A DNA stretch of 64,000 bases from Hydrolagus colliei (Eukaryota). The position numbers were made by a program, and so were the translations under genes. Under the pieces are notes generated by a model that worked only from the letters and a program-made list of their open reading frames with translations, was not told the origin of the DNA and searched no databases. This document shows positions 3,001-61,739 of the stretch, piece after piece (positions within the stretch are counted from its first letter, which is position 1; each line of letters starts with the position of its first letter). The DNA lies in assembly GCA_035084275.1 (NCBI GenBank), contig CM068755.1, positions 7,564,001 to 7,628,000 of the forward strand, given 5' to 3'.

Positions 3001-3291
3001 ATTGGCTGAGCTTAGTGTCCATCAAACTACATTTAAATATGAACAGATTGCCAGAAAAAGAAATGTGTTAGTTGGATACAGTTCAAGTACATGTTTTTGG
3101 GACATCCACCTGACCAGAAAGGCGCTATCCAAATGTAATTTTGTTGTTAGCTCTATATCTGTGGTATATTATTATTTCCTCTGATGTCTGAGATTCTTTG
3201 ACCAATTACAGTTGCACGTTTATAATTTTATTTATTGGTAACTGTCCTTTTGCTGTCTTTATTTTGTACACTACTGGTGCCCGTTCCCCAG

Positions 3292-3471
3292 ACCTGCTTG
3301 GTGATCATCACGTGGCCCAGTTGCTAAGATGGTGTTCAGCCGACAACAGTTTTGCCCAGAACTTTGCCCTTGACGGTGCCTTGGCCCGGCACCTCCACCA
3401 GTGCTCGTACCACCTCCGGCTCTTCAAGAACTGGCTGATCTCTGGGCAGGATGACTTTGACTGCCTCTACG
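3292..3471 (+). CDS. PPIP5K1: PPIP5K1 internal exon, probably a cassette exon (DLLGDHHVAQLLRW...HLHQCSYHLRLFKNWLISGQDDFDCLY-G)
   Basis: Pyrimidine tract + cag acceptor at 3289-3291 and G|gtatcg donor at 3471/3472. It is 180 nt, phase 1-1, and splices in frame to the GFEGCSMVP exon. The peptide resembles an insert recalled from fish PPIP5K1 isoforms. Confidence 0.8.
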
Positions 3472-4729
3472 GTATCGCGTGCTTGTTGCTGCACGGTTGG
3501 CTTTAAATGAATTTCTCAGGCCATTGCAGCTTGGAAATGTAGATGTGCCACTGAGCTTTGCCAAACACAGATTTGTTCTTGCCTCCATATACACTGTTAG
3601 GAGCCTGCAGCCACTGCTGTCCCCATAGAGGGAGAATTGCTGACTGCATTTGAAGCCTGGATATAAAATGTTTTCCGATAAAATAGATAACTTTACAGGT
3701 TAAAAATCAGACTACATATCACACAAGGTCTGCAATATTGAGTACTGTAATTTACTCACATTTCTGCATGCTATAGAAATATACATAGAAAATTAATAAG
3801 GCTATAAAACACAGAAATTGAACTTTGTGAGAACCCATCTGACTATCATCATTTCTAGGCACAGATCCAATGCTTTTACTTACCTAGCGATGTTTTTTAA
3901 GTCTGATTTTTAGCATGTAAAACCGTGTGCCATTGTCTGTCCAAGAATATTGACGCTGACGTTTCCTCTCTTCTGCTGGGTGCAAGCTACTCAGAGGTGT
4001 CTGGAGGCAGGAGTCTTGCAGCTCATTCTTGGCAGTGTATAGAGTAAGAGTCGAAATGCTCTTGTTGTTTGTGCCTGGCTTTTTTCCAGCAGGCTTTGCG
4101 CTACAGTGATCGAAATTAAACATTGGCGGATATCGAGAGTTGTTTTGCCAGTGATTTTGTGACCAGCAGACAAGTACACTAGATCACATTTAAAAAGGAA
4201 GGCAATGTCATAAAAATACAGTATCCAAACTTTAACTTTAGAGCAATAGAGCTCATCAAAATTAGGGAATATTGCTTTCAATCCATTTTGATTTTTTTAA
4301 GGTATTAAAAGTTTCTTAAATCGAAGCAAAGCAATCCCTTTTGTATTTATATCCGAGTTGGCTTCAGGCCATCCTAGCAATTGTAACATTGCAATAGTGC
4401 AAATGTGAAGATCAGGGACTATTTAAAATAAAATCCCTGAATAAAAACAATCTCAGTCACCCATGCTCTTACTCTCCATGCTCTGATGGGGTGGCTTGTA
4501 CTTTTTTTAAGTAAAATGGTTCCGTTCTGCTAACACAAAACGGGGTTGTACAGCTTGAAATGAAGATACCTCACAGATATTCTCTCCTGAGTGTCTGTGC
4601 TTCCCAATTAGCCAGCAGCCTCTTTCAACTGCAAGTGTCTATCATAATTTGCTTACAGCAGATTAAAGAGCCTTAGTTCCACTTGCATGACTCATTTGTG
4701 ATCTCTACACCTACTGAGGTAGTTGCATA

Positions 4730-11922: not shown

Positions 11923-12344
11923 TAGTGTTTTCTATACTGACAACAAATACTATTTTTAGAGTCCACTTGTCCATAGTAGGGAAGTGTGTTTTCACATTGT
12001 TAACTCATGTCAATGATAGCGAAGGTTGTAAGTGTATGCTCCTTCCAAATGATGTTTCAGAAGTTTGTTTCTACTGTTAAATGTAGGTATGTTCTTGAAG
12101 TGTGCTTATGGTGGTGTGATACGTGCAGCTTTGTATTCAGGCTCTCGCAACAGGTAATGTGCTGCATTTGCCTGGCTCATTTTGGTTTGGCTCATTGACT
12201 GCCTTTGTCTTATCAAATAATTCTAAAGTTGGGTTAAAAATATAGGTTTTAGTTTCAACCATTAGAGCTCTGATGAGTTGGATGGACATTTTGTAAAATT
12301 AGTTCATTTTGGGTATCATCTTTCCTTTTCCCTCCCTTATTTAG

Positions 12345-12482
12345 GTTTTGAAGGATGCTCCATGGTGCCTTCCATCTACCCCCTGGAAACACTCCACAAT
12401 TCTCTCTCCTTGAAGCAGGTGGATGAATTTCTCTCGTCCATTTCAAAAATTTGTAGCATGAATCGCACTGGATCTTCAACAG
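12345..12482 (+). CDS. PPIP5K1: PPIP5K1 exon ([32 protein letters not shown]...)
   Basis: ttag|G acceptor and G|gtaaat donor, 138 nt. The peptide matches the PPIP5K1 motif [26 protein letters not shown] (PPIP5K2 has GFELYSMVP). Confidence 0.93.
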
Positions 12483-12723
12483 GTAAATGATGCACTTTTA
12501 CTTGTGAACTCTGCTTGTGCTTTTCAATCTATTTCGCTGTGAAGCTTCACCCATCCTTATCTCTTAAGAACAATGCCCAGGTGTTTGCTTGGACTAGGAT
12601 CCAATGATTTAAATTACTGTACTGCCTTTGTATCATACTGCCAGGCATCTGCTAGTTTACTTAGTGGGGTTCAGTTGGTGAATAGTTTTGTTTGATTTCT
12701 GCATTTTATTTATATTGATATTT

Positions 12724-12787: not shown

Positions 12788-12809
12788 TGGAGCCTGCTTT
12801 ACCCTACAG

Positions 12810-12938
12810 CACTTTCATCTATGTTTGAAACCATGGGAAGTAGCCAGCCTGTGGTTGATGCCTACATACCTCAGCAAGTCCTGTCTTCATCTGTTGCCTC
12901 CTTGTCATTGCGTCCTCGCTCTGATAAACCTGCATGGT
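12810..12938 (+). CDS. PPIP5K1: PPIP5K1 exon (ALSSMFETMGSSQPVVDAYIPQQVLSSSVASLSLRPRSDKPAW-Y)
   Basis: tacag|C acceptor and T|gtgagt donor, 129 nt, phase 1-1. It ends RSDKPAW, like human RSEKPPW. Not in the ORF track. Confidence 0.88.
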
Positions 12939-13277: not shown

Positions 13278-15968
13278 AGGAAGGTATTTCTCACTCCTCC
13301 CACAGTTCTTTCAAAATCCTACTAGTTTATCGCCCCCCCAAACCCTCCCCCACTTTCATTTCAGACTTTTCTTCACTTTTAGTTTCCCTTTGTGCCTCCT
13401 CTGATCGCCTTATTATTCTTGGCGATTTCAACCTCCATTTCACCCCCTCCTGCCCCATTTCCTCTGAAGTTTCCTCTTTACTTTCGTCTTTCAACTTCTC
13501 CCTTCATATCAACACTGCCACCCACACTCACGGCCATCCTCTCGATCTGGTGATCACCCGAGGCCTCAACGTCTCTGGCGTCACCATCACAGACAAGGCC
13601 ATTTCTGACCATTTTTTCATTTCCTGCAACACCTCTATCCCTCCCCCCTCCACTTCCAAACCCACCACCATCTTCTACCGGCCCTGGAAGAAGATTCCCC
13701 CTCAAACTTTCACCTCTGCCCTAGAAACCTCCGACCTCCTCCCACAATGGCATTCTTTTTGTACAGACCCATCCTCCGCCTCCACCGCCCTCCACAACAC
13801 CCTATCCACTACCCTTGACACCCTGGCCCCCCTCACCTCCAAAACCGTCTCCCATTCCCGATCATCACCGTGGTACACATCTCACCTCCGTTCCTTCAAA
13901 AGCCAAGTGAGAGCAGTTGAACGCACCTGGCTCAAATCTGGCCTCACGGTCCACCGGCAAATCTGGCTGGACCGCATCAAATTTTACCGCTCCGCCCTAG
14001 CCACCGCCAAATCAGCCTTCTATTCCAGGATAATCCTGGAAGCGAAGGACAACCACCGCCTCCTCTTCACCACCACCAACCAGCTCCTCCGCCCCCCCCC
14101 CCCGCCTCACCTCGCAGATCCTCTCCTCAAACGTTCGTTGTGAGGAGATGCTGGATTTCCTCGAGTCCAAAATTGAGAAAATCCGCTCTGCGGTTTCCTC
14201 CCCCCACCACTCCTCCACCTCCGCGCCCTGATCAGTTACTGCAACCCCTACTCACCCCCCATTTCACACTTTCAACCCCACCACCCCGCTTTCAGTCACA
14301 AAAACAATCACCTCCATGAAACCCACCACGTGCTCATTGGACCCCCTCCCCACCCCCCTCCTCCACACCCAGCTCCATTTGTTAGCCCCACTCATTTCTG
14401 ACACCATTAACCTTTCCCTCTTCTCAGGAACCGTCCCTACCTCCCTTAAAACAGCCACCATCACCCCTATCCTGAAGAAACCCTCCCTTGATGCGTCGCA
14501 ACCATCAAGTTATCGACCCATCTCCAACCTCCCGTTTCTATCCAAGGTCCTTGAAAGAGTGGTTCCCTCCCAGCTCCGCTCTTTCCTTTCAAATCACTCA
14601 CTTCTTGAACCCCTCCAATCAGGTTTCCGCCCTATCCACAGCACAGAAACTGCCCTGGTCAAGGTCACAAATGACATCCTAACCGCCTGTGACCAGGGCT
14701 CCCTCTGCCTCCTCGTCCTCCTTGACCTGTCTGCTGCGTTCGACATAGTCGATCACACCATCCTCCTTCAACGTCTTTCCTCCCACCTCAACCTTCAAGG
14801 CACAGTCCTTGACTGGTTCCACTCTTATTTGACCCATCGTTTACATTTTGTTTCTTCCAATGGCTTTTCTTCAAACCCCCGCACAGTTTCCCACGGCGTC
14901 CCTCAGGATTCTGTCCTCGGTCCCCTTCTTTTCACCCTTTACACGCTCCCTCTGGGCGACGTCATCTGCAGACATGGGGTAAATTTCCACATGTATGCGG
15001 ATGACACCCAGTTGTACCTTTCTGCCTCATCCCTCAACCCCCAGACGATCGATGTTCTGACAGCATATCTGTCCGACGTCAAATCGTGGACGAGGGACGT
15101 GAATAAGACCGAGGCCCTCCTGATTGGCTCAAGCCAGCGCCTCCGCACATCGGGCTCTGCCAGCCTCAACATCCAAGGCTGCACTCTCCACCTCACAAAG
15201 CCAATCAGGAACCTCGGCATCATGTTCGATCAAAAACTTTCCTTCCTCCCCCACATCCGCGCCTTGACCGGCACCGCCTATTTCCATCTGCGCAACATTG
15301 CCAGGCTCCGCAACTATCTTACCCCCCGCGCTGCCGAAACACTTGTGCACGCGTACATCACCTCACGGCTCGATTACGGAAATTCTCTCCTAGTCGGCCT
15401 CCCCAGTTCCTCCATTCATAGGCTGCAGGCCATCCAAAACTCTGCAGCCCGTGTACTATCCCGCACCCGCCTCCGTGACCACATAACCCCCACCCTCGCC
15501 CGTCTCCACTGGCTCCCCATCCTCCAGAGGATCAAATTTAAGATCCTCGTCCTCACCTACAAGGCCTTACACGGCCTTGCCCCATCCTACCTAGCCGATC
15601 TACTCTCCCCCTACACGCCCACCGGGACCCTCCGTTCAACAGGACTTGGCCTGCTCCAAGCCCCCCGCCCGAACCGCCCCATCATCGGAGGCCGGGCCTT
15701 CAGTTTCTCCGCTCCCACCTTATGGAATGCCATCCCTCAATCCCTCCGTTTCGCCTCTTCCCTTTCCTCTTTCAAGGCCGATTTGAAGACTTTCCTCTTC
15801 GATCGTGCCTTTTGTTCCACCCCGAACTCTTTTACCTCCCCTTCGTGTTTCACCCCTTCCCAAACACTCCCCTCCCAGCTCGGGTCACACGCCTCTTGTT
15901 TAGCGCCTTGGGACGTCCTCCCGACGTGAAAGGCGCTATATAAATGTAAATTGTTGTTGTTGTTGTTG
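13278..15968 (+). mobile_element. 5'-truncated L2-clade LINE, ORF2 (APE endonuclease + RT), disrupted
   Basis: APE motifs YRPP, GDFN, LDLV, SDH. RT motifs [24 protein letters not shown]. Frameshift and stops at about 14100-14230. 3' end ACGTC-CTCCC-GACGT stem-loop + (GTT)n tail. Confidence 0.95.
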
Positions 15969-16212
15969 TATTGGATAAGTATGCACATTGATCTTGTAAT
16001 TTGTATTATATCTTGAGTTTAAGACACATTAGGCATTGGCAGGGAAACATTAACAAAGCGTTTTCTGTCCAGAAAAAAAAGTGATTGTGTATATCTACAG
16101 AAAGGTATGGATACTTCAGGACATGGACAGATGCAATATTGTAGCTTTTAATAGTTATTTCCCTCTCTATTTGCTTTTCACTTATTTATATCTGTTGAAT
16201 CCTGAAATACAG

Positions 16213-16877
16213 ATAGCAGTGGTCCCTCAAGTACCGTGTCAAGTGCTGGCCCATCATCTCCCAACACGTCTGACAATTCCCCGAGATTTAGCTTCAGTGA
16301 GAAGTCATCACTTACATCTCAGAGTAGTGAAGAACAGCAGCACTGTGGACAGCAAATTACTCCAAGTCAACAGACGAGTCAGAGTCAATCAACACCAAGT
16401 ATCCAGGGCAACCAGGGACAAACCACACAATGCATCCAGAGTCAACCAGTAACTCCAAGTCTGAACCAACCTAAACACCGTGCTCAGGTCATCCAGGGGC
16501 AAGCAGTAGCTTCTAGCCCGAGCCAACCAACACTTGACACTCAGGAGAACCGGAGACATACAGTAACTCTGAGCCAGAGTCAACCATTACATGGTATGCA
16601 GGGCAGCCTGAGTCAACCAGTAACTCTGAGCCAGAGTGACAAAGATCAGCAAGGTGATAGACCCAGCCAGGAGCAACAGTCCACTGAAAGCCAACACCTG
16701 AGCCACAGTCAACCAACACAAGGTGTTAACGACAGCAAGACGCAACAAGCTACTCAAGATCAACAACTCGACCAGACTTGTAAGGACCCACAGGGTCAGA
16801 TAGGTTCAATGAGTAGTGGGAGCCCCAGTGGAGATCTAGCATCAACAACAACAACAACAACAAAATTACATTTATAG
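16213..16877 (+). CDS. PPIP5K1: PPIP5K1 terminal coding exon (YSSGPSSTVSSAGPSSP..., S/Q-rich disordered tail)
   Basis: tacag|AT acceptor. YSSGPSSTVSSAGPSSP matches the recalled human PPIP5K1 sequence. The ORF runs to TAG at 16875-16877. Confidence 0.88.
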
Positions 16878-16898
16878 AGCACCTTTCATGTCGGGAGG
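16843..16898 (-). mobile_element. Short antisense L2 tail overlapping the PPIP5K1 stop codon
   Basis: Reverse complement cctcccgacatgaaaggtgctctataaatgtaatttt(gtt)n matches the L2 end at 15917-15968. Confidence 0.9.
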
Positions 16899-19800
16899 CG
16901 CTCACACAAGCAGATCATTTTTCAGTTACGCACCACCAGTTGTAATGAATCAATGGTTTACCAGAGAGAGCATTGGTGTACATTTTATATTTAGTATCTA
17001 GTGGTATAGATCTGGTATTGGTACCACTGAAATGACTGACACTAAAGTAAGCCATTTGCACTCTCCAGATTAGATCTAATCAAGTATGGCTGTGAATTTA
17101 TACCTCTGACCTCGTGGTTTGTTTCAGTCTGATATTGGAATATGTTAGTATTGGAATGTGTAGATATATCTGTAATTTGCAAGTTTCTTATGCCTTTACC
17201 TGTGCACAGAAAACTTATTTCTTTATCCGGTATATTTTGTAAGTTTTACATAATTATTTAATGATGGTTTTGTGCAAATCTGAGATGAGTTTAAACCTTG
17301 AGATTGAAAGAACTTTTTTTCCAATTATATTCTACAAAAAGTAACCAATCACAGCAAAATATGAACGTGTGATGTGTGTCTATAATAAGGTGAACCATTC
17401 AAATTAAGATGAGGTTAGCAATTCAATGTTGCATCGATTTGGTGCCTATGAACTGAACAAAGTGAGGGTGAAAATGTTGGACAATGGAATATCCTTCCAT
17501 TATTTTGCACACGTGATCAGGCAAATTGTGGCTTGTGTGGGATGAGAGAAAGAACTGCATCATACTTGAGTGGCCATCAAAACTTTCCAAGAGCAATAAC
17601 TGAAAAATACTCTGAACATTTTGCATTTAGTTGCTGAAAACTTGTTTTAAAATGTGTTTTTGTACAAGTGCTACCAATACATGTTGATTTGAGTGTGACA
17701 GGAGTTATCTCACAGGTATGGACCACCATTTATCACCCCACAATGTGTGCTCTTAGAGATTGAGTAGCACAAATTACCCGTAACAAAAAAAACACAATGC
17801 AATGCATTTCCTCCAGTGAGCTCCTTACCAAAAACTTAACATAACTACTGATTCCAATATTGGTTTTGTAGTCAAGGCGTCATGTGAGATTAATTCAGCC
17901 TTTAGGAGCCCTCGAATGCTTCATGATAGTTGAAAACTTCCAGTAACTGTATTTTTTTTAAACCTATCGTATTGCTTTAGTTGGTACAAATTGCAGTTTG
18001 AGGTGATCAGTGTTATTTGATGTGGATGTTTAACTAAATTTGACGAGCTGACAAAAATCCTGCACTGGGTCCGTTCACTTGCCAAGTGCTCGTGATATAC
18101 TGCAAAACGTGTGGCGTTCCATACCTGTTTGGAAAGTATAAATGTTTTTGTTTTCAGTGATGAAATGCACATTGTTCTCAGGCACCAACTGAACTGATGT
18201 GAAACACACAGCAACAGTTGAGCTGGGTTAGGAGGTGAGGTTTTTCCTTCTACTGCAAGAGGTGATGGCTGCTTCATGGTTGGGACGATTGAAAATTTCA
18301 AAGGGACAGCTAACGGTATACGTATATCACAGTCAACACCCAGAGGTTTGACCACCAGCACTTCAATTCCCTTTTCGCTATTTAGCAGTTTTGTTTTGCA
18401 GTGTTTTTCTTTTCAGAAAAACTGTTTCAGAAGAGCTTAGGAAACTTGCTAAAAGCATCTGCCCTCCTACTGATCCTTGCTACAGCAGTGAATAAAAGTG
18501 AAAGTGGTGTGGTTTGAAGTTTAAAGAAAATACTGATGACGTTTCATAGGGTGATTAATTTCCATGTCTGGTTGGTCGACAGACTTCCTCGTTGCCCAGT
18601 GCATGGCGATTTATTTTAACATTCTAAAACAAGCATGCTACTTTTGACAATTCATACTGATTATGGAAGCAGAATTAATATTTTCTCTTTATACACAGCA
18701 GGAACCAGCGAGTACAGCAAAAATATGCAGCAATATTCAATTTGACTTCCTGCTCATGCTCTCATAGTCACACACACAATCGTATAATGGCATTATTAAT
18801 TTTTTATGTACACTATATTTGTTAAAATATTCAAGTGATTAAGGTTATTCTTGAGGCAATGGATGCTGCCTTTGCTGGGTATTAGCCACATCAAAAATAA
18901 TAATAACAATAATAATTTGGTCACTCAATCCACGACTGCTTGTGGGACACTGCTGTGTGCAGTTGGCTGCCGCATTTTACACATAAAATATACAATCAAT
19001 TCACTTTGTAGTATATTCTGTGAACCGCCTTGAGACTTCTCGCAGACGTGATAAGGCTCTATATCGAACGCAAGGATCATTATTATCAAGTTGTGATATG
19101 CTGTCCTCATTGCTGCCTAACTTTATTGAAATTGTGCTGCAATTGTCATAAAATGGGTGGGTCTGGGAGGGTGGGGTGGGGGGTGGATTAGAGTGTACCA
19201 TTCTAGCCTAAAACAAAAGTATGAATAAGGGAATTGCTGTTGAGTTTGTTTGTTTGGTTTCCTGAACCCTAGCTTCTTGAAATTGCCAGAATCCCCTATG
19301 GCATAATAATGACCTGGGTGGGTGGCATTAATCAAGGTCACATTATAAGGATGTCGTCACCTGTGTTTTTATGGTGCGGGGTCCGGGAGGCCCCCCCACA
19401 CCCCCCACAATTGATGTACAATTAGGTTTGTACAGTGCTGTTGAGTGAGTAGTCACAAGCAGTAACGTAAGATATGGAGTTGCTCCAGATTTCTAGACAC
19501 TCATTTGGTGCCTGATCTTGCACTCAAGCAGCACCTACACACATATCTTCCAGCAGGGGTCACCGAATCGTGATGAAGAGCTGGGACCCCAGCTGAGATA
19601 AGGCTGGCCACAGCGCTTTACATTAAATTTTCACAAAATCTTACCCATTGAATCTAATCAAAAGCTGAGACTCATAAGCACATAGAGTAGTAGCCAATCA
19701 AAACCACTCCCTCAGCAGTGAAAAAGCCAAGATTTAATGATTGATTTAGGGGACTATTTCCACAGTAAAACTACAAATGGATTATAGAATCATTAAGTAC

Positions 19801-22274: not shown

Positions 22275-23217
22275 TCAACAACAACAACAAATTACATTTA
22301 GAGAGTGCCTTTCACGTCGGGAGGACGTCCCAAGGCGCCACACAGGAGGCGTGTGACCCGAGCTGAGAGGGGAGTGTTTGGGAAGGGGTGAAACATGAAG
22401 GGGAGGTAGAAGAGTTCGGGGTGGAACAAAAGGTACGGTCGAAGAGGAAAGTCTTCAAACCGGCCTTGAAAGAGGAAAGGGAAGAAATGAGACGGAGGGA
22501 TTGAGGGATGGCATTCCATAGGGTGGGAGCGGAGAAACTGAAGGCCCGGCCTCCGATGGTGGGGCGGTTCGGGCGGGGGGCTTGGAGCAGGCCAAGTCCT
22601 GTTGAGCGGAGGGTCCGGGTGGGCTTGTAGGGGGAAAGTAGATTGGTTAAATAGGGCGGGGCAAGGCCGTGTAAGGCCTTGTAGATGAGGACGAGGATCT
22701 TGAACTTGATCCTCTGGAGGATGGGGAGGCAATGGAGACAGGCGAGGGTGGGGGTTATATGGTCGCGGAGGCGGGTGCGGGATAATACACGGGCTGCAGA
22801 GTTTTGAATGACCTGCAGCCTGTGAATGGAGGAACTGGGGAGGCCGACGAGGAGAGAGTTTCCGTAGTCCAGCCTCGAGGTGATGTATGCGTGCACGAGT
22901 GTTTCGGCAGCGCGGGGGGTAAGATAGTTGCGGAGCCTGGCAATATTGCGCAGGTGGAAATAAACGGTGCCGGTCAAGGCGCGGATGTGGGGGAGGAAGG
23001 AAAGTTTTTGATCGAACATGATGCCGAGGTTCCTGATTGGCTTTGTGAGGTGGAGAGTGCAGCCTTGGATGTTGAGGCTGGCAGCGCCCGATGTGCGGAG
23101 GCGATGGCTTGAGCCAATCAGGAGGGCCTCGGTCTTACTCACGTTCAATTGCAAGAAGTTCTCCCTCGTCCAGGACTCGATGTCGGACAGACATGCTGTC
23201 AGAACATCGATGGTCTG
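22275..23217 (-). mobile_element. 3' fragment of the same L2 family, inverted
   Basis: The translation is nearly identical to the C-terminal part of ORF 14316-15929, with the same tail. Confidence 0.95.
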
Positions 23218-51985: not shown

Positions 51986-52135
51986 ATAATAATTAATGAT
52001 AAATGGTAATTAGGGTTCTTACCGCATGCATGTCTGAGTAAGAAAAAAAGGCACGTCAGTTTAACGTTTCATCTGAAGAATAAATCCGACCACTTGACAC
52101 GTAATTTAGGTTGTACACGGACATAGAATTCTTAC

Positions 52136-55100
52136 CCACGTTACTTTTGACACCATTAACCATGCCTTTTCCCATGCTGGGTTGACTGCATCTGGAGATG
52201 TCATCCTTGTCATCGATGCGGGATGAATGGACATCAGGAGTTTTGGAGGCTTTAATTGGTTTCTCCGCTGAGTCCTTCTCTTTCTTTTTTGTGGATGTTG
52301 TTTTTGGAGATTTTTCTGAATCTTTTTGAGCTGATGCTGCTTTTGTAGGAGTTGCTGGATGTTTACTTTTGGCATCAGATTTTCGCCCAGGGGAAGCCGA
52401 TTTCGATTTGTTCAACGCTTTTCTGGTGCCTTTGGTCTTCTCCTTTATGTCTTTCTTCAGCAGTTTATTGATGTTTTGCTCATTTGCGAGCACCTCTGGA
52501 TCCACCATGCACACGTCAGGGTGTGGAGGCTGAGGGTGAGGATCCATCATGGGGACAGGAGGTGGGTCATACCCAGGGCGTGAAGTCGTATGGTGGGACG
52601 TCCCTGTTGTTTTGTCCACAGGAAGGTAATCAGCATCTTCATCGGAGTCATTAGCTGCGTCTGCGGTTATAGATGGGCAGTCCTCAGTTTCTGGGGGAAC
52701 ATCTGAATCGGAGTGAGACGGAAGTGAGTCACTATCAGACGTGGGGGGAGTTTCCCCACCCACATTTTGATGAGGTTGACTACCACTAGTGTGAGGCGTG
52801 CTTATCTTCTCCACAGAGGTTGGAACATCTTGGGAGTTGTCGTCATCCGACAGCTCATGGGGACTTGGGTTTATGAAAGAAGGAGAAAGCTCATCTTTTT
52901 TGTGTTTGTATTCACTTGATGAAAACATAAGCTTGTAGTCAGATGTGGCTCCCAAGCATCCCTCCGGGTCATGTGCGGCATCCCCATGGTCATCGCCTTT
53001 GTGAGAATCTGAAAAAAATGATTTGAAGGTTTGATCACTCGATGCCAGAGAGGAAGGACGGACCAATTGCTCACTTGCCTCTTCCAAGTAAGATTTTGAA
53101 TGCTCAGAGTCTGGAGTGCTCTTCTCTGAAGATGAATAAACATCTGCCTCCTTTTCTGATGGGCTTTGCACCAGTAGAGGGCTGAAGCTCATTTCTGTTG
53201 GTCCATTTGCTGTGGCTTCATCCTCTTGTTCAGGAGGAGAGAATGACGTCAGCATGTGAGGAACTGTAGGTGCTTGTGATGGACCCAGCTCTGAGGGAGC
53301 AGTTTCTGTTCCTGTTTTGGTGTCTGCTGGGGTAGAGGAGGCTGATCTTTGGCATTCCACCCTGCAGGACAATGTGGAATCTTCAATGTCACAAAGATAA
53401 GCTGAGCTGTGCTCTGCGGGGGCCGCTGGCAGCTCCTCTGTCTCAGTGAGGTGAGAAGAGGCCATGGCTGCTGGGACTAGTGGAGAAACTTCATCCAAAC
53501 TTCTGCCTTTGTCTGATTCAAGTGCTGTAGAGTATGAGCACTCAGTTTGGGTCTGAGGAACAGGTGTAGGATGGCTATGCAAAGTCTCCCATGAAGTTGA
53601 CACAGGTGTATCATCTTTTAATAAGCTTGGAATTTTGCTGTCAGTAGTCATCTCTGGTGGGGACGGTGTCACTTCCTGAAAGGGACTCATTGGTGAAAAT
53701 CCTATGCAAGAAGGCTCAATGATAACTTTCTGAGCTACTTCCATATACTCATCCTGGACCCTTCGATCTTCAAACACTATACCTGAAACACTAGTTGGAA
53801 ACATTTCTTCTTCCGTGAAGGTGGAATACTCAAACTGAGCAATGGCAGGCTTCTCTTGCTTGGCTGTGACTGAATATCCAGGCTTGGCTGCCCATTCCTC
53901 TGGTTTAGATGTCAACATACTCTTAAAGTCAGGCATAACTAATTCTTTGACTTTGCTAAGAGTGCACATTTCAGGACTCTTCCCATTGTCTTCACTCATT
54001 TTTTTGTCATCATGTTTGGTTTTATCAGAATCTGCACATTGGTGTGACACAAATTGAGTTGTTATACCAGAATATTCAAACTCACCGGAGATGGGCCGTT
54101 CCATCCAAGATTCCTCTTGCTGTTTATGTCTTGTGCACAATGAATTCTCAACTTCAGTGTACTTGAGACTGTGGGACAAGTTCTGGGTTTCATCTAATGC
54201 TTCTTTATGCTCACTCATGCACAAAACATCCTTTTCTTCATGATAAGAGGCGAGTTGCTCCTTCTCCAATTTCTTAGGAAGAATTACTCCTTCAGTCCCT
54301 TTGCTTCCCTCTTGCTCCCGGGAACAACTTCCTGTGGCACTTGCTTTGGATTGTTCATCGGATGTGGACTGCTGTCCAGTGCTGGTGGGAAGAGATTTTC
54401 TGTCTACATCTGGGATTTCTGCATATGGATAACTCATTCCTTTTTCTTGATGTGTAATGTCGAACGGAGACTCTTTTTCCGATTTCTCAATAGCACCTTT
54501 CTCTAACTCTGATTCACTGGTACTTTCTTCATCTTCCTTCTCACAATACCCCAAAATGTTTGAATCGGTCTCCTTCTGTGTCATTTCTGTGTAGCCGGCA
54601 CCTGTTGAAAAAATGTCATCCAAGCGAGGCATTTCAGCGTATGGTACTGTGGTTGGACGGAATTCTGCTTGTTCTAGACCACTCTGAGGAGACATTTGCT
54701 TTTCTTCAGGAGAGGCACGAGAAGAGCTTTCTTCAGGTTTGCCTTCCAAGGAGGTTTTCAAAGTCATATCACTCAGCTTCTTATCCTCTTCTTTTGCATC
54801 ATATCCCAAAGGACTAAACTGAGAGGTTGTTAGTGTTAGAGAGGGAGCTTTGGGTAAATCTGGAATATCTGCATATTCTGCAGTACTTGCTGGACTCACT
54901 TCTTTTTCTCCAGATAAAGCACTTGTTGATGGCTCCTTTTCTGTTTGTGTAGAAAATAGTGACATGTCAGGTGTAGACTTCTTTTCCATCTTGCCAGTCT
55001 CCCATGTCATTTCAAATGGCAGCTCTTTCTGCTTTGACATGCAATCTAATCCTTTCCATTCTATTTCCTCCTGTGTCCTAGCCAGCTGTCCAAAGGCAGT

Positions 55101-58100
55101 TACTGTTTCATCTATCTCTGTGTAGGAAAAGCTTTTATTCTCAGGATAAGGTGTTGCCTCCCTTTCTTCCTCTTCGGACGAGAATTCATCTTTCAACTTG
55201 GTTCTGAATTCTTCTTCCATATAAAGTCCAGAACTGGTGAACTTGTATTCCTTGTGGGTCACAGAATGGTACTCTGTGTCTTCAGCTTGTTTGATGGGAG
55301 CAGGTTTGGGTTTTGTCAGAAATAAATCTTTCTCATCTAGATAAAAACCTTTGGCCTCACCTTCTCTCAAAACATCAGAGTATCCATACCCTCTTGACGT
55401 AGAGTGCATCTCCTTATCTTGTTCCAAAGACAATTTCCCCTCCTCTTTGCTGGTGGCATCACCAGTCTTCAGGTCCAAATGTTTTTCCTCTTTTGCTGAT
55501 TTCTCCTCCGTTGAATGCTTTATTGTTTCTGGAGTGGTCACAATGGGTGAAGTCGCTTTGTGCTCGGTGGTGGCCGGTATATCTGGATATAAATCGTGTT
55601 GTTTATCAAAGGCACTACTGTATTCAAATGGAGACATGCTGCTATCTTGCCCGCTGGTCCAGGGGTAGTCAATACCACTGGAAAACCCTTTTGCTTTTTC
55701 TTCAAAGTAAGTGTATTTCTGTTCACTTTCTACTGCCTCTAATTCCTTTTGCCCAGTTAATTTATCCTTCAGTTCCGGTACTTCAATTGCACTCTTCTCT
55801 GGAGAGGGTGAACGCTGAGATGTAAACGTGCTATCCTTGTCAAAAGGAGAGCCAGTGTAATAGGAAGTATGATCCCATTTACCAGATTCAAATGAAGAAA
55901 TCTCAGACTTTGCTTCACAACTCACATGTTCTGATTTTTTGTCTGAAAAGGATATTTTGTCATCAATGCATGGTTCACAAATCTCCTTCATTGCTCCCTG
56001 GGTGCATGTATGTTCAGCATCAGTAGTGAGCTCTCTCTGACTTTTAGTAGTGATGTCAACTTTGGACATTTCAACCTCCGCTGTAGTTTCATCTTTCTGA
56101 TGGAGAAAACGCTCAGACTGTAATAGATAACCTTGTAGCAAACTGCTGTCCATTTCTTCTACAGATTTCATCTTGTCTTCGATAATATTTTGATCTTTAA
56201 TTGGTGAAATGTCACCTGCATGTTGCTTTACGTCAAAATCTTTCTTACTGTCCGGCAACAATTGCTGCAGATTTATCTTACTGTCAGAAACAGTTTTGGT
56301 GTCTACGGTCTCAAGGGTGTGTTTGTCATCAGGTGAAAGTTTACTCTGCGTGTCTTGCTTTGCTGGAGACTTCAGTAAAGCATCCATCTCACTAATGTGA
56401 TGTTCCAAAGTATCAGTTGGTGAATGATCAAATCTGTGGGCAGCTGCATCCACCTTATCCATTGTCAATGTCTCCTTTTTGTCAATGTCTCTTTCTATTT
56501 TTCCAGTATCGCTAGGCTGCTTTTCCACCACATCTATTTTCTCTATTTCTGCATGTCCCTTCTTGAACAATTCTTCAATTTTCTCTGTCGCAATGGGCTG
56601 TGTTAGCTCTTTATCCACCTTTTCAGCCTCTGTTGGTTTCTCTGGGGCCTTTTTATCCAGTTTTTCAACTTCTGTTGGTTTCTCCAGAATCTCTTTATCC
56701 ATTTTCTCAGCCACTATTGTTTTTTGTGAGGTCGCCTGATCCATTGTTTGAACCTCTGTTGGTTTTTCTAGTGCTTCCTCTTTATCCATTTTTGGAGCCT
56801 CTATGGACTTTTCTGGAGTCCCTGTATCCATAGTTTTATCCATTTTTTCAGTCACTGTTGGTTTTTCAGAGGTCTCTTTATCTATCTTTTGAGCCTCCTT
56901 TGGTTGATCCAGAAACTCTTTATCCACTTTTTCTGCCATTGTTGTTTTTTCTGAGAGCTCTTCATCCATCTTTTGAGCTTCTTTTGGTTTTTCCAGAACC
57001 TCTTTATCCATCTTTTGTACCTCTGTTGGTTTTTCTGAGGCCTCTTTATCCATCTTTTGTGCCTCTGTTGGTTTTACTGAGGCCTCTTCATCTAATTTTT
57101 CAGCCTCTGTTGGTTTTTCCAGAACCTCCTTATCCATCCTTTCAGCCACTGTCGTTTTTCCTGAGATCTCTTTGTCCATTTTTTGTGCCTCTGTTGGTTT
57201 TTCTGGGGTCGTTTTATCTAGTTTTTCAGCCTCAGTTGGTTTTTCCAGAACCTCTTTGTCCATTTTTGGAGCCTCTATTAACTTTTCTGGGGCCTTTTTA
57301 TCTATGATTTTAGCCTCTGCTGGTTTTTCAGGGACCTCTTTGTCCATTTTTTCAGCCTCTGTTGATTTTGCCTCTAGAATCTCTTCCACAATTTTCTCTG
57401 CACCTGCTGGCTTCGTCTTGAAAACCTCCAGTTCGGTCTCTGGATATTTCTTCCTCTGGAATTCCATATCCATGCTCTCCACATCTGTGGGCTTTCTCTC
57501 CTGAAGAGCTCCTTCCACTTTATCTGGGGATTTCTGATCTAGGAATTCCTTATCCATGGTCACTGTTTCTGTTGGCTTCATCTCCAGATCCTCTGTATGT
57601 ATTCCTTCGGCTTTTGTGGCTTTCTCCTTTTGTACATCTGGAGATATTTTCTCCAGGATTTCCTTCCCAATTTTATCTGTATCTACCGGCTTCAAGTTTA
57701 GAATATCTTTTTCCACTTTCCCAGCCTCTGTGAGTTTTTCTGGAACTTTCTTTTCCAGCATTATCTTTTCATCCTGTGGAGGTTTTTCCAATAAGATTTC
57801 TTTCCCAATTTTCTCTGTATCTGCCAGCTTCATCTCTACATCCTCTTTTTCAGTCTCTGGAGATTTCTTCCCCAGGAGTTCTTTATCCTTGCCCTCTGCG
57901 ACTGTTGGCTTCCTCTCCTGAAGATCTTTTTCAATTTTTTCCGTAGCTGTGTGCTCTGTTTCCTGAACATCCTTCTCCATTTTCTCTGTTGTTGTATATT
58001 CTTGTTCATGTGCCAGTTTTTCTTTTGGTGTCAATTCAAGGTCATGAGCATCTGTGTCCGGAAGAGCAGGTGTTGAAGAAAGGAATGATTCTTGATCCAA

Positions 58101-61100
58101 TTCAGATCTGAGTCCTGAACTAGGTTGCACTGTGTCTTTGTCCTTAGCGGGTTTCTCAGTAGTCACGGACATTACTTGCATGGTCTTTTCCAACAGCTCG
58201 GTTTCAACAGTGTCAGGCCTTTCTTCAACTGGTGATTGATGGAAAGGGGTGTGCCCAGCACTGGTTGGTCCTGATTGAGTTGGTGAGGCCATTTTTACCG
58301 TGCTGTCATCAGGGCTGATGCACTTCTCATCGCTTTCAAGCAAACTAGAATCAAAATGCAAGGATGGCCTGAATTCATCATCGGTCTTTTGGCTAAATTC
58401 AACTGGTGAATCGGGAGCAGTTGTGCTCTTTTCTGGAAATAAGGCTGAATATTGCTCTTTATGCTTTTCTGGTATTTCTACAATAGGTGTTTGCTCTTCT
58501 TCCTCTTCTTCCTCCTGCTCCTCCGTCGTTTTAGTAATGACCTCAGCAATAGGGTGGAAGTCTTCCGATGGTGGGGATTTGAAGTATTTGTCCTCTTCCA
58601 ACGATGATGTGGGCGATATAGTACCCGCTGATGGGAGGTATTCTTTCCCTTGAGTGGCTTCTGTTCTGCATGATCCCATGCTGTTCACCGTGTCCAACAT
58701 AAGTGAGCTCTTGCCCGTCTCTTCCGTCTGAGGTGCTGTTACTGATGCCACAGACTGGTCTTCTGCCACTGACGTAGCAAATGAAGAGAGTTTATCACAC
58801 TCGGTGATGGAAGCAGCAGATGAAATGTGTTCCTCTTCAGCAAGCGGTGCCGCCAATATCTCAGAGGGATAGACCACAATCTCAGGCTCCACTCGGGCGA
58901 AGCCCTTGATACCAGCCTCGGTTCCAGACATTGCCTTCATCTCCTTCATTCCATGGACTGCGTCAAAGGACCTTGTATCGTCTGGCACAGAGATGTCATA
59001 TGTGTCCACTTCATATTTTAGGTGACCAATTCGATCTTCTTGTTCATCGTGAATTTCTTCATCAGAAATGGTTTGTTCAGTTTCAGAATAGCCAGGAATA
59101 GTTTCATCCTGAATGTAAGAAACTGGCTCTCCCACTGCTCCCTGTGTGGATAGCATTTGTGTTCCCACTGCCTCTGTTTTAGCCACAGTAACTTTCACTT
59201 CTTTTTCTTCAACCTCCTCTTTTTTCCCCACTGCTGATTGATACTTAAATAGATTTTGGTCTTGTTTTTCACTGTATTCATCCTTGTCCTTTAATTCATC
59301 TGAATATTTCTCTTTTTCTTGCTCCTTTGCTGTTAATTTTAAATCCTCCTCTACATCTTCTGTTTCTTCCACTTCTGCCTTTTCTATCACCTCTTCCCCC
59401 TCACTTTCTTCTACTTCACCTTGGTCCCTCATCTCCATTGTTTCAATGTACCTTTCACATGTCTCCATCTGTTCCTCCTCCTTTCTTCCAACTTCTTTTC
59501 CTGCCTTTTCTAGAGTCACAATATTTTCTTTGAAAAGGTCTTGTTCTTTTGCTTCATCGATTTGAGCCTTTTCTAATCCTTCCTGCAAAACTGGGCTTTC
59601 TTGTAACTCATCTTGTTCTTTCTCTGCCTTTTTCTCTAATTTTTCTTCCAATTCACTCATTTCTAACGATTCCTCCATTGCAGTTCCTTCATCTTCAAAC
59701 TTCTCTGCAACATCTGTAGTTGGCTGAGGTGGACAAATACCCTGTTCTTCATAAGGTGATTCGCCTTCTACATCTGTTGTAGTTATTCCTTCATCTGGCG
59801 ATTCAAGAGGAGCCTTTATGTCAGTGATAGTACGAGTCATTATCAGCTCTGGCTGAGGGCTGGGAACAAGTGCATCTAGTTGTTCCTCATTTACTTTAGC
59901 CATTTCTTCCACATCAACGGGACTTGCGCTTGGTTCTACACAAATTGGCTCTTTAGTCACATCTGTCTTGGTCGTCTCTTCTTGTTTCAGTTCCTCAAAG
60001 TCCTTAGTTAAGTCTTCAGGTGAAGACATTACAGATCTCTCTGCTTGCAAATCAATTGATATTTGTTCCTCTGCTCCAGGTTCAGTTGGCGGTGGCTCAT
60101 CTTTTTGTTCAACTTTGAACTCTTTTCCCACTTTTGCTTTAGCAGAATCTATTTTTCTACCTGGCATTTTCGCCCTGTGTAGAGTTTTTCTGACTTCTGG
60201 TGTAAATGGTTTAAAGTCGGTTTTGGAAAACTTCTTTATTTCTTTTTTCATGTCCTTTTCCTTCTTCTTCTCATCCTTTTTAGCTTCCTTTTTCTCATCC
60301 TTTTTCGCATCATCTTTCTTTACTTCTTTTTTCTCCCTTTTAATTTCCTTTTTCTCCTTATCCTTCTTTTCTTCAGACTTTGCTAGCTTGTCTTTGTTGT
60401 GTTTTTTCAGAGTTCTTTCTTTGATCAATTTTTTCTTTTCTGTTTTCATTGCATCAGCTGCGGATTTCTCTACTTCGCTCTTTACCTTTTTCTCTTCTTT
60501 CTTCTCTATCTTGCTTTCCTTTATTGGCTCAGGTTTAACCTCTGGAGGCTTCGTAGAGATCTCTTCTGGTGTTTCCTCCTTTTTCACAGGTTTAGCTGCA
60601 GCTGGCCTGGGTGAAGATTTGAGACTTTCTTTGCTATCTGTCCTCTGCCTTACTTTTGTCTGTTTCACAGCTGGTGGGGTCATGCCAGTAGAAAGGTCTT
60701 TTTGAGTAGCAACGGGGTATTTTAGGAAATCTAGGTGCTTTAATTTTTCTAGTCCCTCTAAGATTTTGTTCTGTGGTGCATTCCCAGGGAACAAGACACG
60801 GACTATTTTCTCTGTAGGGTTGGCAGGATGCCACACAACTAAAGCTGTAATGGAGGTTAGATAAGGGACCGAAATCTCCCCTTCTTTTCCATTGGGCAGA
60901 ATGATTCCAGTCTTTGCCTTGCTATTTCCTGCCCACTTCTGCATCAGAAACTGCATTTCCTTGCTGTCTTTTACTGGGTTGAGGATGTACATGTCTAGTC
61001 GTCCAACTCCCATCTTGTGGAACAATGGAATTGGATCGATAGTTGCCCCAACAACCCTGTTGAGAGGCTCTTGTTTGATGCTGAGTTTGGTTAAGTACTG

Positions 61101-61739
61101 TAGCGTTAAACAGGCTTCTTCAATGCTCCTTTTGACTTTCATAGACGACTCCTGCATTTTTAATTTCTCAGGAACGTTGAAGAATACTACTCCTAGCTCA
61201 GGAGAGATGAGATTTTTCATCCAGTCGCTGTACGTTGTGGAACCTTGCGATTGCTCCTCATCTTGCTCGGCTATTTTTCGCTGGAGGAGGCCGTTAATTC
61301 CAGGCAAATTGTCTGCACCAATGTGCGTCAGGAGTATGGAATCGATCCTGTCCAAATGACGAACAAGCTTCCAAAAGCAGGATTTCCTTTCAGAACCTCC
61401 ATCAATGAGGATGTTGAAGCCATTCACAGCAAATAATGCTGAGTCTCCTCTTCCCCCAGGGAAGATATAGCAGCATGGTTTGGACAGTTTAAGGAAACCC
61501 CCTGAGGTGGGAGGCTCTAGGAGGTCAAAAGGTGATGGAACCTCCACAGATTCAGAGAGGTATTCTGTAAACTCAGAGACTCCATCCATCTCTGGCAGGA
61601 CAGTTGCTGGGTTCAGATTAAGGTTGATGAACTCCTGGAGATTGTGTTGTTCTAGATTGTTCCAGTCCCCTTCTCCAGAGTGGCAGATGGTCAGAAAAGC
61701 CTTGGTGTCAATGTCCGTATTGCTCAGTAGCTCTGTAAT
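52136..61739 (-). CDS. MAP1A: MAP1A giant exon (9604 nt): heavy chain with KKE microtubule-binding region, plus start of light chain LC2
   Basis: tttag|ATT acceptor and GTGG|gtaag donor. MAP1A-diagnostic sequences include MDGV, THIGADNLPGINGLLQRK, MQFLMQKWAGNSKAKTG and GNAPQNKILEGLEK. Also a KKE-rich basic region, DSDVPPETEDCPSIT and HPDVCMVDPE. Confidence 0.96.
56530..57990 (-). repeat. Coding tandem repeat in MAP1A: 15-aa units followed by 14-aa (42-nt) units of type KMDKEVLEKPTEAE
   Basis: Repeated gcctctgttggttttt...tctttatccat on + and the periodic peptide in the translation. Confidence 0.85.

Follow-up and report, generated by a model that had tools for sequence, protein, structure and literature searches.

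In yeast, 45 of 54 C-terminal additions were due to upstream frameshifts, according to the accessible part of Andreatta et al. (2015, PMC4494051). Transposable elements are common in last exons, and the openly available sections of Sela et al. (2007, PMC2394776; 2010, PMC2879366) give 10,541 such elements in human genes, usually in a UTR, and an in-frame stop codon in 61–84% of exonized elements. Alternative C-termini from exonized elements are described in the available text on SMN exon 6B (PMC4969610) and on L1-derived exons (PMC12129022). As for the insertion process, excerpts of the respective studies describe 5΄ truncation, blunt joining and 5΄ microhomology for ZfL2-2 of the L2 clade (PMC2666801), and typically 5-bp duplications for ZfL2-1 (PMC4245944).

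Here we describe a LINE fragment in the last coding exon of a PPIP5K gene, encoding an inositol pyrophosphate kinase, of the chimaera Hydrolagus colliei, located in a 64,000-nt stretch of DNA that was analysed as a whole (the window, to which all coordinates refer). As in the frameshift-derived C-termini, a change near the stop codon exchanges the last residues of the protein for new ones; unlike the cases in the accessible part of PMC4494051, the residues and the stop come from a retroelement, the protein would be three residues shorter, and the allele is common to two species rather than polymorphic. The element lies in a last exon and brings an in-frame stop codon, as in the cases in the available sections of Sela et al. 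(PMC2394776, PMC2879366), but it is inserted in coding sequence, has no new splice site and appears to be constitutive. Like SMN exon 6B and the L1-derived exons, it provides the end of a host protein; whereas those are splice isoforms beside the original in the available accounts, the PPIP5K insert displaces the original end at the DNA level. Finally, it is 5΄-truncated like ZfL2-2 and ZfL2-1 insertions, among whose outcomes blunt joining and microhomology are described in the excerpts, and it differs from them in being truncated at the foot of a 3΄ hairpin with an internal loss of 11 nt; no 5-bp duplication was seen. Among the papers listed in literature searches outside subscription journals and supplements, none describes this locus.

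Results

The last coding exon and the identity of the gene

Four exons of the Callorhinchus milii protein were placed in the window (3279–3473, 12341–12484, 12806–12938 and from 16213 on). The penultimate coding exon (12806–12938, plus strand, start approximate) was found by tblastn with the C. milii protein (97.7% identity over 44 aa), and 14 RNA reads that enter at 16213 have their loose end at its 3΄ boundary. The coding part of the last exon (16213–16877, plus strand) is supported by the C. milii orthologue, by a splice acceptor (tacag/AT) and by these spliced reads. Its open frame, which runs from 16206, closes with a low-complexity Gln/Ser/Thr tail terminating in GDLASTTTTTTKLHL and a TAG at 16875–16877. 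No Pfam family was found in 16213–16877. The last-exon peptide was 83% identical to C. milii PPIP5K isoforms over 93% of the query, and aligned with shark, ray, coelacanth and teleost proteins over its first 25–65 residues only (120 of 1,138 matches listed). The chimaera last exon (16213–16842 in the window) is about 130 codons longer than that of sharks and rays and contains internal near-repeats (SQP-VT-SQ-like units); comparison of C. milii with the window gave +4 residues near 16795 and –3 near 16360.

The gene is likely to be PPIP5K1 rather than PPIP5K2, on the basis of features and synteny and not of trees. The convergent neighbour is a MAP1 gene, with MAP1A as its best Atlas match (0.95), followed by MAP1S (0.93), and the start of the last exon matches a primate protein fragment labelled kinase 1. 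Since human PPIP5K1 is, we assume, also next to a convergent MAP1A, these observations favour PPIP5K1. The NCBI label on most of the listed matches to the last-exon peptide is 'kinase 2'. The MAP1A-like gene has a single open frame of 3,200 codons (52059–61739, minus strand), within which a 42-bp coding unit is repeated in tandem 17.8 times (56607–57369).

An antisense LINE stub in the last coding exon

Our analysis confirmed that an antisense retro-insertion supplies a threonine run and a TAG in the last coding exon, as the first-pass annotation had read from the letters. Repeat matches, an empty site and trial deletions delimit an insert of 59 bp (16843–16901, minus strand) that comprises the 5΄-truncated 3΄ end of an L2-type LINE, namely hairpin, spacer and (TTG)n tail, antisense to the gene. 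On the gene strand, the tail is a perfect (CAA)x7 (16843–16863), which tandem-repeat analysis and frame reading resolve in frame as Ser followed by six Thr. The new stop codon (16875–16877, plus strand) lies within the element and is followed by the element's 3΄ stem-loop (16878–16902, minus strand), which now belongs to the 3΄ UTR and, by folding and copy comparison, has a 7-bp stem and lacks 11 nt found between two AGG in ordinary copies. Positions 16845–16898 were 90.7% identical over 54 nt to the reverse complement of 15917–15969 (E = 3.6e-15, search of the window), and eight or more further copies in the window also matched.

Among 1,120 trial deletions, the best was uniquely 16843–16901, with a score of 91 and 19 of 24 residues identical to the C. 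milii tail without gaps; it restores the old junction Ala-Phe-Thr. The length of 56 bp proposed at first pass must be corrected accordingly: its deletion scored only 74, with 12 identical residues, and left one residue too many relative to the C. milii tail, and the outgroup has 11 bases against 70 in the window. The in-frame tail predicted to emerge on removal of the element, TQADHFSVTHHQL followed by TAA (16943–16945), held good, apart from its junction, which had been given as Ala-Ser-Leu. The 5΄ junction shows a 1-nt overlap, T16902 being assignable to host or element. We saw no target-site duplication, since the 59-bp length and the Ala-Phe-Thr fit leave no duplicated target bases (the 11 letters of the outgroup were counted, not read). 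We also weighed a 2-nt 'TC' duplication and discarded it, as it would require a 60-bp insert.

The displaced C-terminus and the empty site

The former C-terminal codons now lie out of frame in the 3΄ UTR (16902–16945, plus strand), where they close with the old TAA in another frame than the present end of the gene. This old tail is intact: 11 of 13 residues are identical to the end of the C. milii protein, which terminates in GDPAFTPADTFSVTHHQL in 5/5 clusters (one member from UniRef V9K810), and the old stop is kept. In an outgroup, organism C, bases 3–336 of a contig correspond to 16510–16831 and bases 348–587 to 16902–17141, so that the site is empty. Over eight listed pieces, 224 of 2,161 letters differ between organism C and the window. 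Three of the listed differences yield exactly the C. milii residues and two are silent; two further ones lean to C. milii residues, a second change being needed that is absent from the rows shown, and a gap of 12 letters coincides with an insertion of 4 residues. The C. milii tail and the empty site support the proposal, already made at first pass, that the ancestral C-terminus gave way to a retro-inserted sequence; the codons of the old tail are still present 3΄ of the element. Read from the frame, the protein would end in STTTTTTKLHL, with 11 new residues in place of 14 old ones (three fewer). No chimaera protein with this end was present among the matches listed for the last-exon peptide and in a second protein search (121–385 aa; 60 matches among 801 candidates), and the latter contained no chimaera fragment with either tail.

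Transcription, sharing and age of the insert

Four of 22 sequencing runs were examined, and these represent one outgroup and, apart from the source, two individuals; X1–X4 (a possible source sample), X7–X11 (shares 0.22–0.41), X12–X15, X17–X20 and X22 were left out. No RNA run was listed for organism A. Repeat masking hid 16832–16876 in the read mapping, and a joint row at this repeat, reported with organism C, was dropped. From organism B, a second species, 27% of an RNA run was read and 544 records mapped, with all first mates on the minus strand, as expected of a plus-strand transcript; 14 of the reads splice into 16213 from the upstream exon. Depth was unbroken to 18700, with 9.2 in the half-masked bin vs 23.4 and 19.4 on either side. 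No splice joint was listed across the insert at a threshold of 10 reads in 100, although joints ending in the masked letters could be dropped; likewise, transcripts splicing out before 16843, an outcome that had been named as a check, were not seen in this RNA within the same mask. The element is transcribed in the mature mRNA of organism B, with 45 letters masked. We infer that organism B uses the same stop codon, the first two letters of the TAG and the repeat frame lying in masked letters. The insert is inside an old exon without a new splice site and is not a case of splice-mediated exonization. In the 3΄ UTR of organism B, a 9-base deletion (18372–18380) was found in 13 of 30 RNA reads and is possibly an allele.

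A single contig (16877–18700) from a second organism A individual joins the insert to its 3΄ flank without a break at 16902; the depth of this contig, 42.9, equals that of the left flank (40.5) and the summed depth of two allelic contigs on the left (22.1 + 19.2). A contig of organism B (16877–17012) showed 0 differences from the window, and two CpG-type changes of the insert (16881 and 16889) are therefore common to organism B. No empty-allele contig was listed in either the second organism A individual or organism B (X5, X6), and the insert is apparently on both chromosomes in organisms A and B. The second organism A individual had three listed differences from the window, and organism B had 38 across the roughly 2,440 letters covered by its RNA (1.6%). 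The former individual is heterozygous at 16726–16831, where one allele carries three differences, that at 16810 being common to organisms B and C.

We place the insertion later than the divergence from Callorhinchus but earlier than that between organisms A and B. The available text of PMC11521621 gives a crown age of 173 Ma (148–214). Scaling the 1.6% divergence against the 9–10% of organism C and this crown age yields an uncorrected minimum age of, very roughly, 25–35 million years. The view that the insertion is recent does not agree with its presence, including both CpG-type changes, in species about 1.6% diverged.

The LINE family and the origin of the stub

An exact 34-letter pattern of the ordinary tail had 11,604 matches in the genome (reversed control, 0), and the family thus has at least 11,604 tails, as counted by one exact pattern. 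A longer copy in the last intron (14232–15969, plus strand), a relative of the insert and not its source, contains a reverse transcriptase frame (14232–15926; Pfam RVT_1, E = 2.3e-26), indicating that the family's parent encodes a non-LTR reverse transcriptase. Atlas matches to the LINE gave RVT_1, with no clade named. A short tandem-repeat tail in place of poly(A) is a feature of L2-clade LINEs, and a (TTG)n tail is present in the insert and in most of the 45 copies examined. We take the family label to be L2, and the LINE likely belongs to this clade, as judged from features rather than trees. Two copies, L040 and L047, have four-base (TCAA)n, that is (TTGA)n-like, tails instead of (CAA)n. 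Two LINE copies of 91.5% identity flank the last exon in opposite orientation (15042–15965 and 22276–23217), one in the last intron and the other 5 kb downstream, and could pair if transcription extends there.

With the junction seen in the insert, an 11-nt-shorter form, the same pattern occurred in 15 genome copies (loci L031–L045), all without the 11 nt that ordinarily separate two AGG inside the 3΄ hairpin. Six of the 15 continue into the body of the element and fall into two subfamily types, whereas nine, including the insert, end no more than about 4 nt from the stem foot (partly by eye). Occurrence of the loss in at least two subfamily types suggests a template slip that recurs. Among ordinary copies, for which the first 30 on contig 1 were taken (L046–L075, a non-random set), 18 run on, 7 end at the stem foot and 5 are of other kinds (partly by eye). 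On the basis of these 7 of 30 copies, stubs of about 70 bp are a frequent product of this LINE family. The ordinary hairpin folds at –23.6 kcal/mol (z = –3.98, equalled by none of 200 shuffles), whereas that of the insert folds at –8.8 kcal/mol (z = –0.57), not above shuffles, with the 7-bp stem retained. A 3΄ UTR stem-loop is described for stringent-type LINEs in the accessible part of PMC3747384.

These data can be arranged into a possible course of events. The LINE enzyme would have primed on the (UUG)n tail in a target-primed reaction, copied about 55 nt, slipped between the two AGG across the inner hairpin with the loss of 11 nt, and arrested at the foot of the outer stem. Joining, with one shared nucleotide and without duplication of the target, would then have placed the TAG in frame 14 codons before the old stop, giving the STTTTTTKLHL end. 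Part of the four-letter junction in the nine short copies could be chance host sequence; at this locus, three of the four junction letters are, by count, absent from the empty site. Fold-back synthesis was considered as the source of the last four letters and set aside, as the six copies that extend into the body of the element point instead to a jump along the RNA template.

Discussion

We consider it probable that a 59-bp antisense LINE stub put a TAG in frame and that the change was fixed by drift, with neutrality judged from poor conservation and not from a selection test. In the accessible part of PMC5857911, the C-terminal region of PPIP5K1 is a non-catalytic disordered domain. Chimaeras, sharks, coelacanth and teleosts have unrelated residues at the extreme C-terminus: 49 of 50 elasmobranch-type matches (P0006–P0055) end in LVET, the coelacanth protein in SEEQQ and that of C. 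milii in HHQL. In a tail that is both disordered and unconserved, the cost of the change was likely small, and neutral fixation is likeliest given the lack of conservation across fishes. An mRNA with its stop codon in the last exon should escape nonsense-mediated decay, and this would apply here. Moreover, assuming 20,000 genes, the 11,604 copies predict about 10 such insertions per genome in the last 45 coding bases by chance. The only points against neutral fixation are the shared allele and the intact old tail, and neither tests selection; slow evolution explains the intact old tail but does not prove it.

Another explanation is that selection would have retained the Thr-rich, KLHL-ending tail, perhaps for a modification site or for a binding motif within the part of PPIP5K1 that contacts its partners. 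The insert is common to two species and apparently homozygous, and the C-terminal disordered domain binds the exocyst, according to a title in the reference list of PMC5857911. In addition, the coding part of the insert is unchanged relative to subfamily copies, and two changes in its 30-nt core (16881, 16889) both follow the stop codon. However, both fall on CpG sites, of which the coding part has none, so that this contrast between coding and post-stop letters is empty. Taken with the unrelated C-termini and the ten or so chance insertions per genome, this makes retention by selection unlikely. The stronger form, in which the stub would have been co-opted as a constitutive C-terminus, with a poly-Thr length that could change without breaking the frame and a KLHL end that would alter partners or turnover, is more doubtful still.

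It is also conceivable that splicing, frameshifting or read-through gives part of the protein its old end, which would explain why the old codons are intact (11 of 13 residues as in C. milii). In organism C, the piece 16902–17141 has 15 differences in 240 letters, a lower rate than in the eight pieces together (224 in 2,161). On the other hand, the RNA of organism B contained no joint at 10 or more reads in 100 (those in masked letters could be dropped), and the depth of 9.2 between 23.4 and 19.4 fits full read-through of the insert by transcription. As the old tail is in another frame, ribosomal read-through alone would not restore it, and we regard such a bypass as very unlikely.

The first-pass annotation had favoured a recent, possibly segregating 56-bp insertion copied from the neighbouring L2 (15917–15968), a history that would suit the perfect (CAA)x7 and the 91% match to a copy 0.9 kb away. 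This copy departs from the insert in its A-run, spacer and subfamily letters; since other genomic copies match better, one being identical over a 37-nt core, the neighbouring copy was not the template. With an insert of 59 bp that a second species carries with 0 differences over 16877–17012, and no empty-allele contig listed in X5 and X6, we find this history highly improbable. An assembly artefact, to which repeat-derived sequence at a microsatellite might give rise, is scarcely credible, as the junction of the insert with its 3΄ flank was found in independent samples of two organisms (X5, X6), the other junction lying in masked letters.

This locus is a clean new case of a known process, probably not an exaptation, and leaves the general view unchanged. 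As an enzyme end written by a transposon, it is unusually legible, with the insert, the displaced tail with its old stop and the empty outgroup site all visible. The insert also preserves a snapshot of a copying failure of the LINE family at its 3΄ hairpin, and it provides a ready presence/absence marker for chimaera phylogeny. For the kinase itself, the finding means that its extreme end tolerates replacement.
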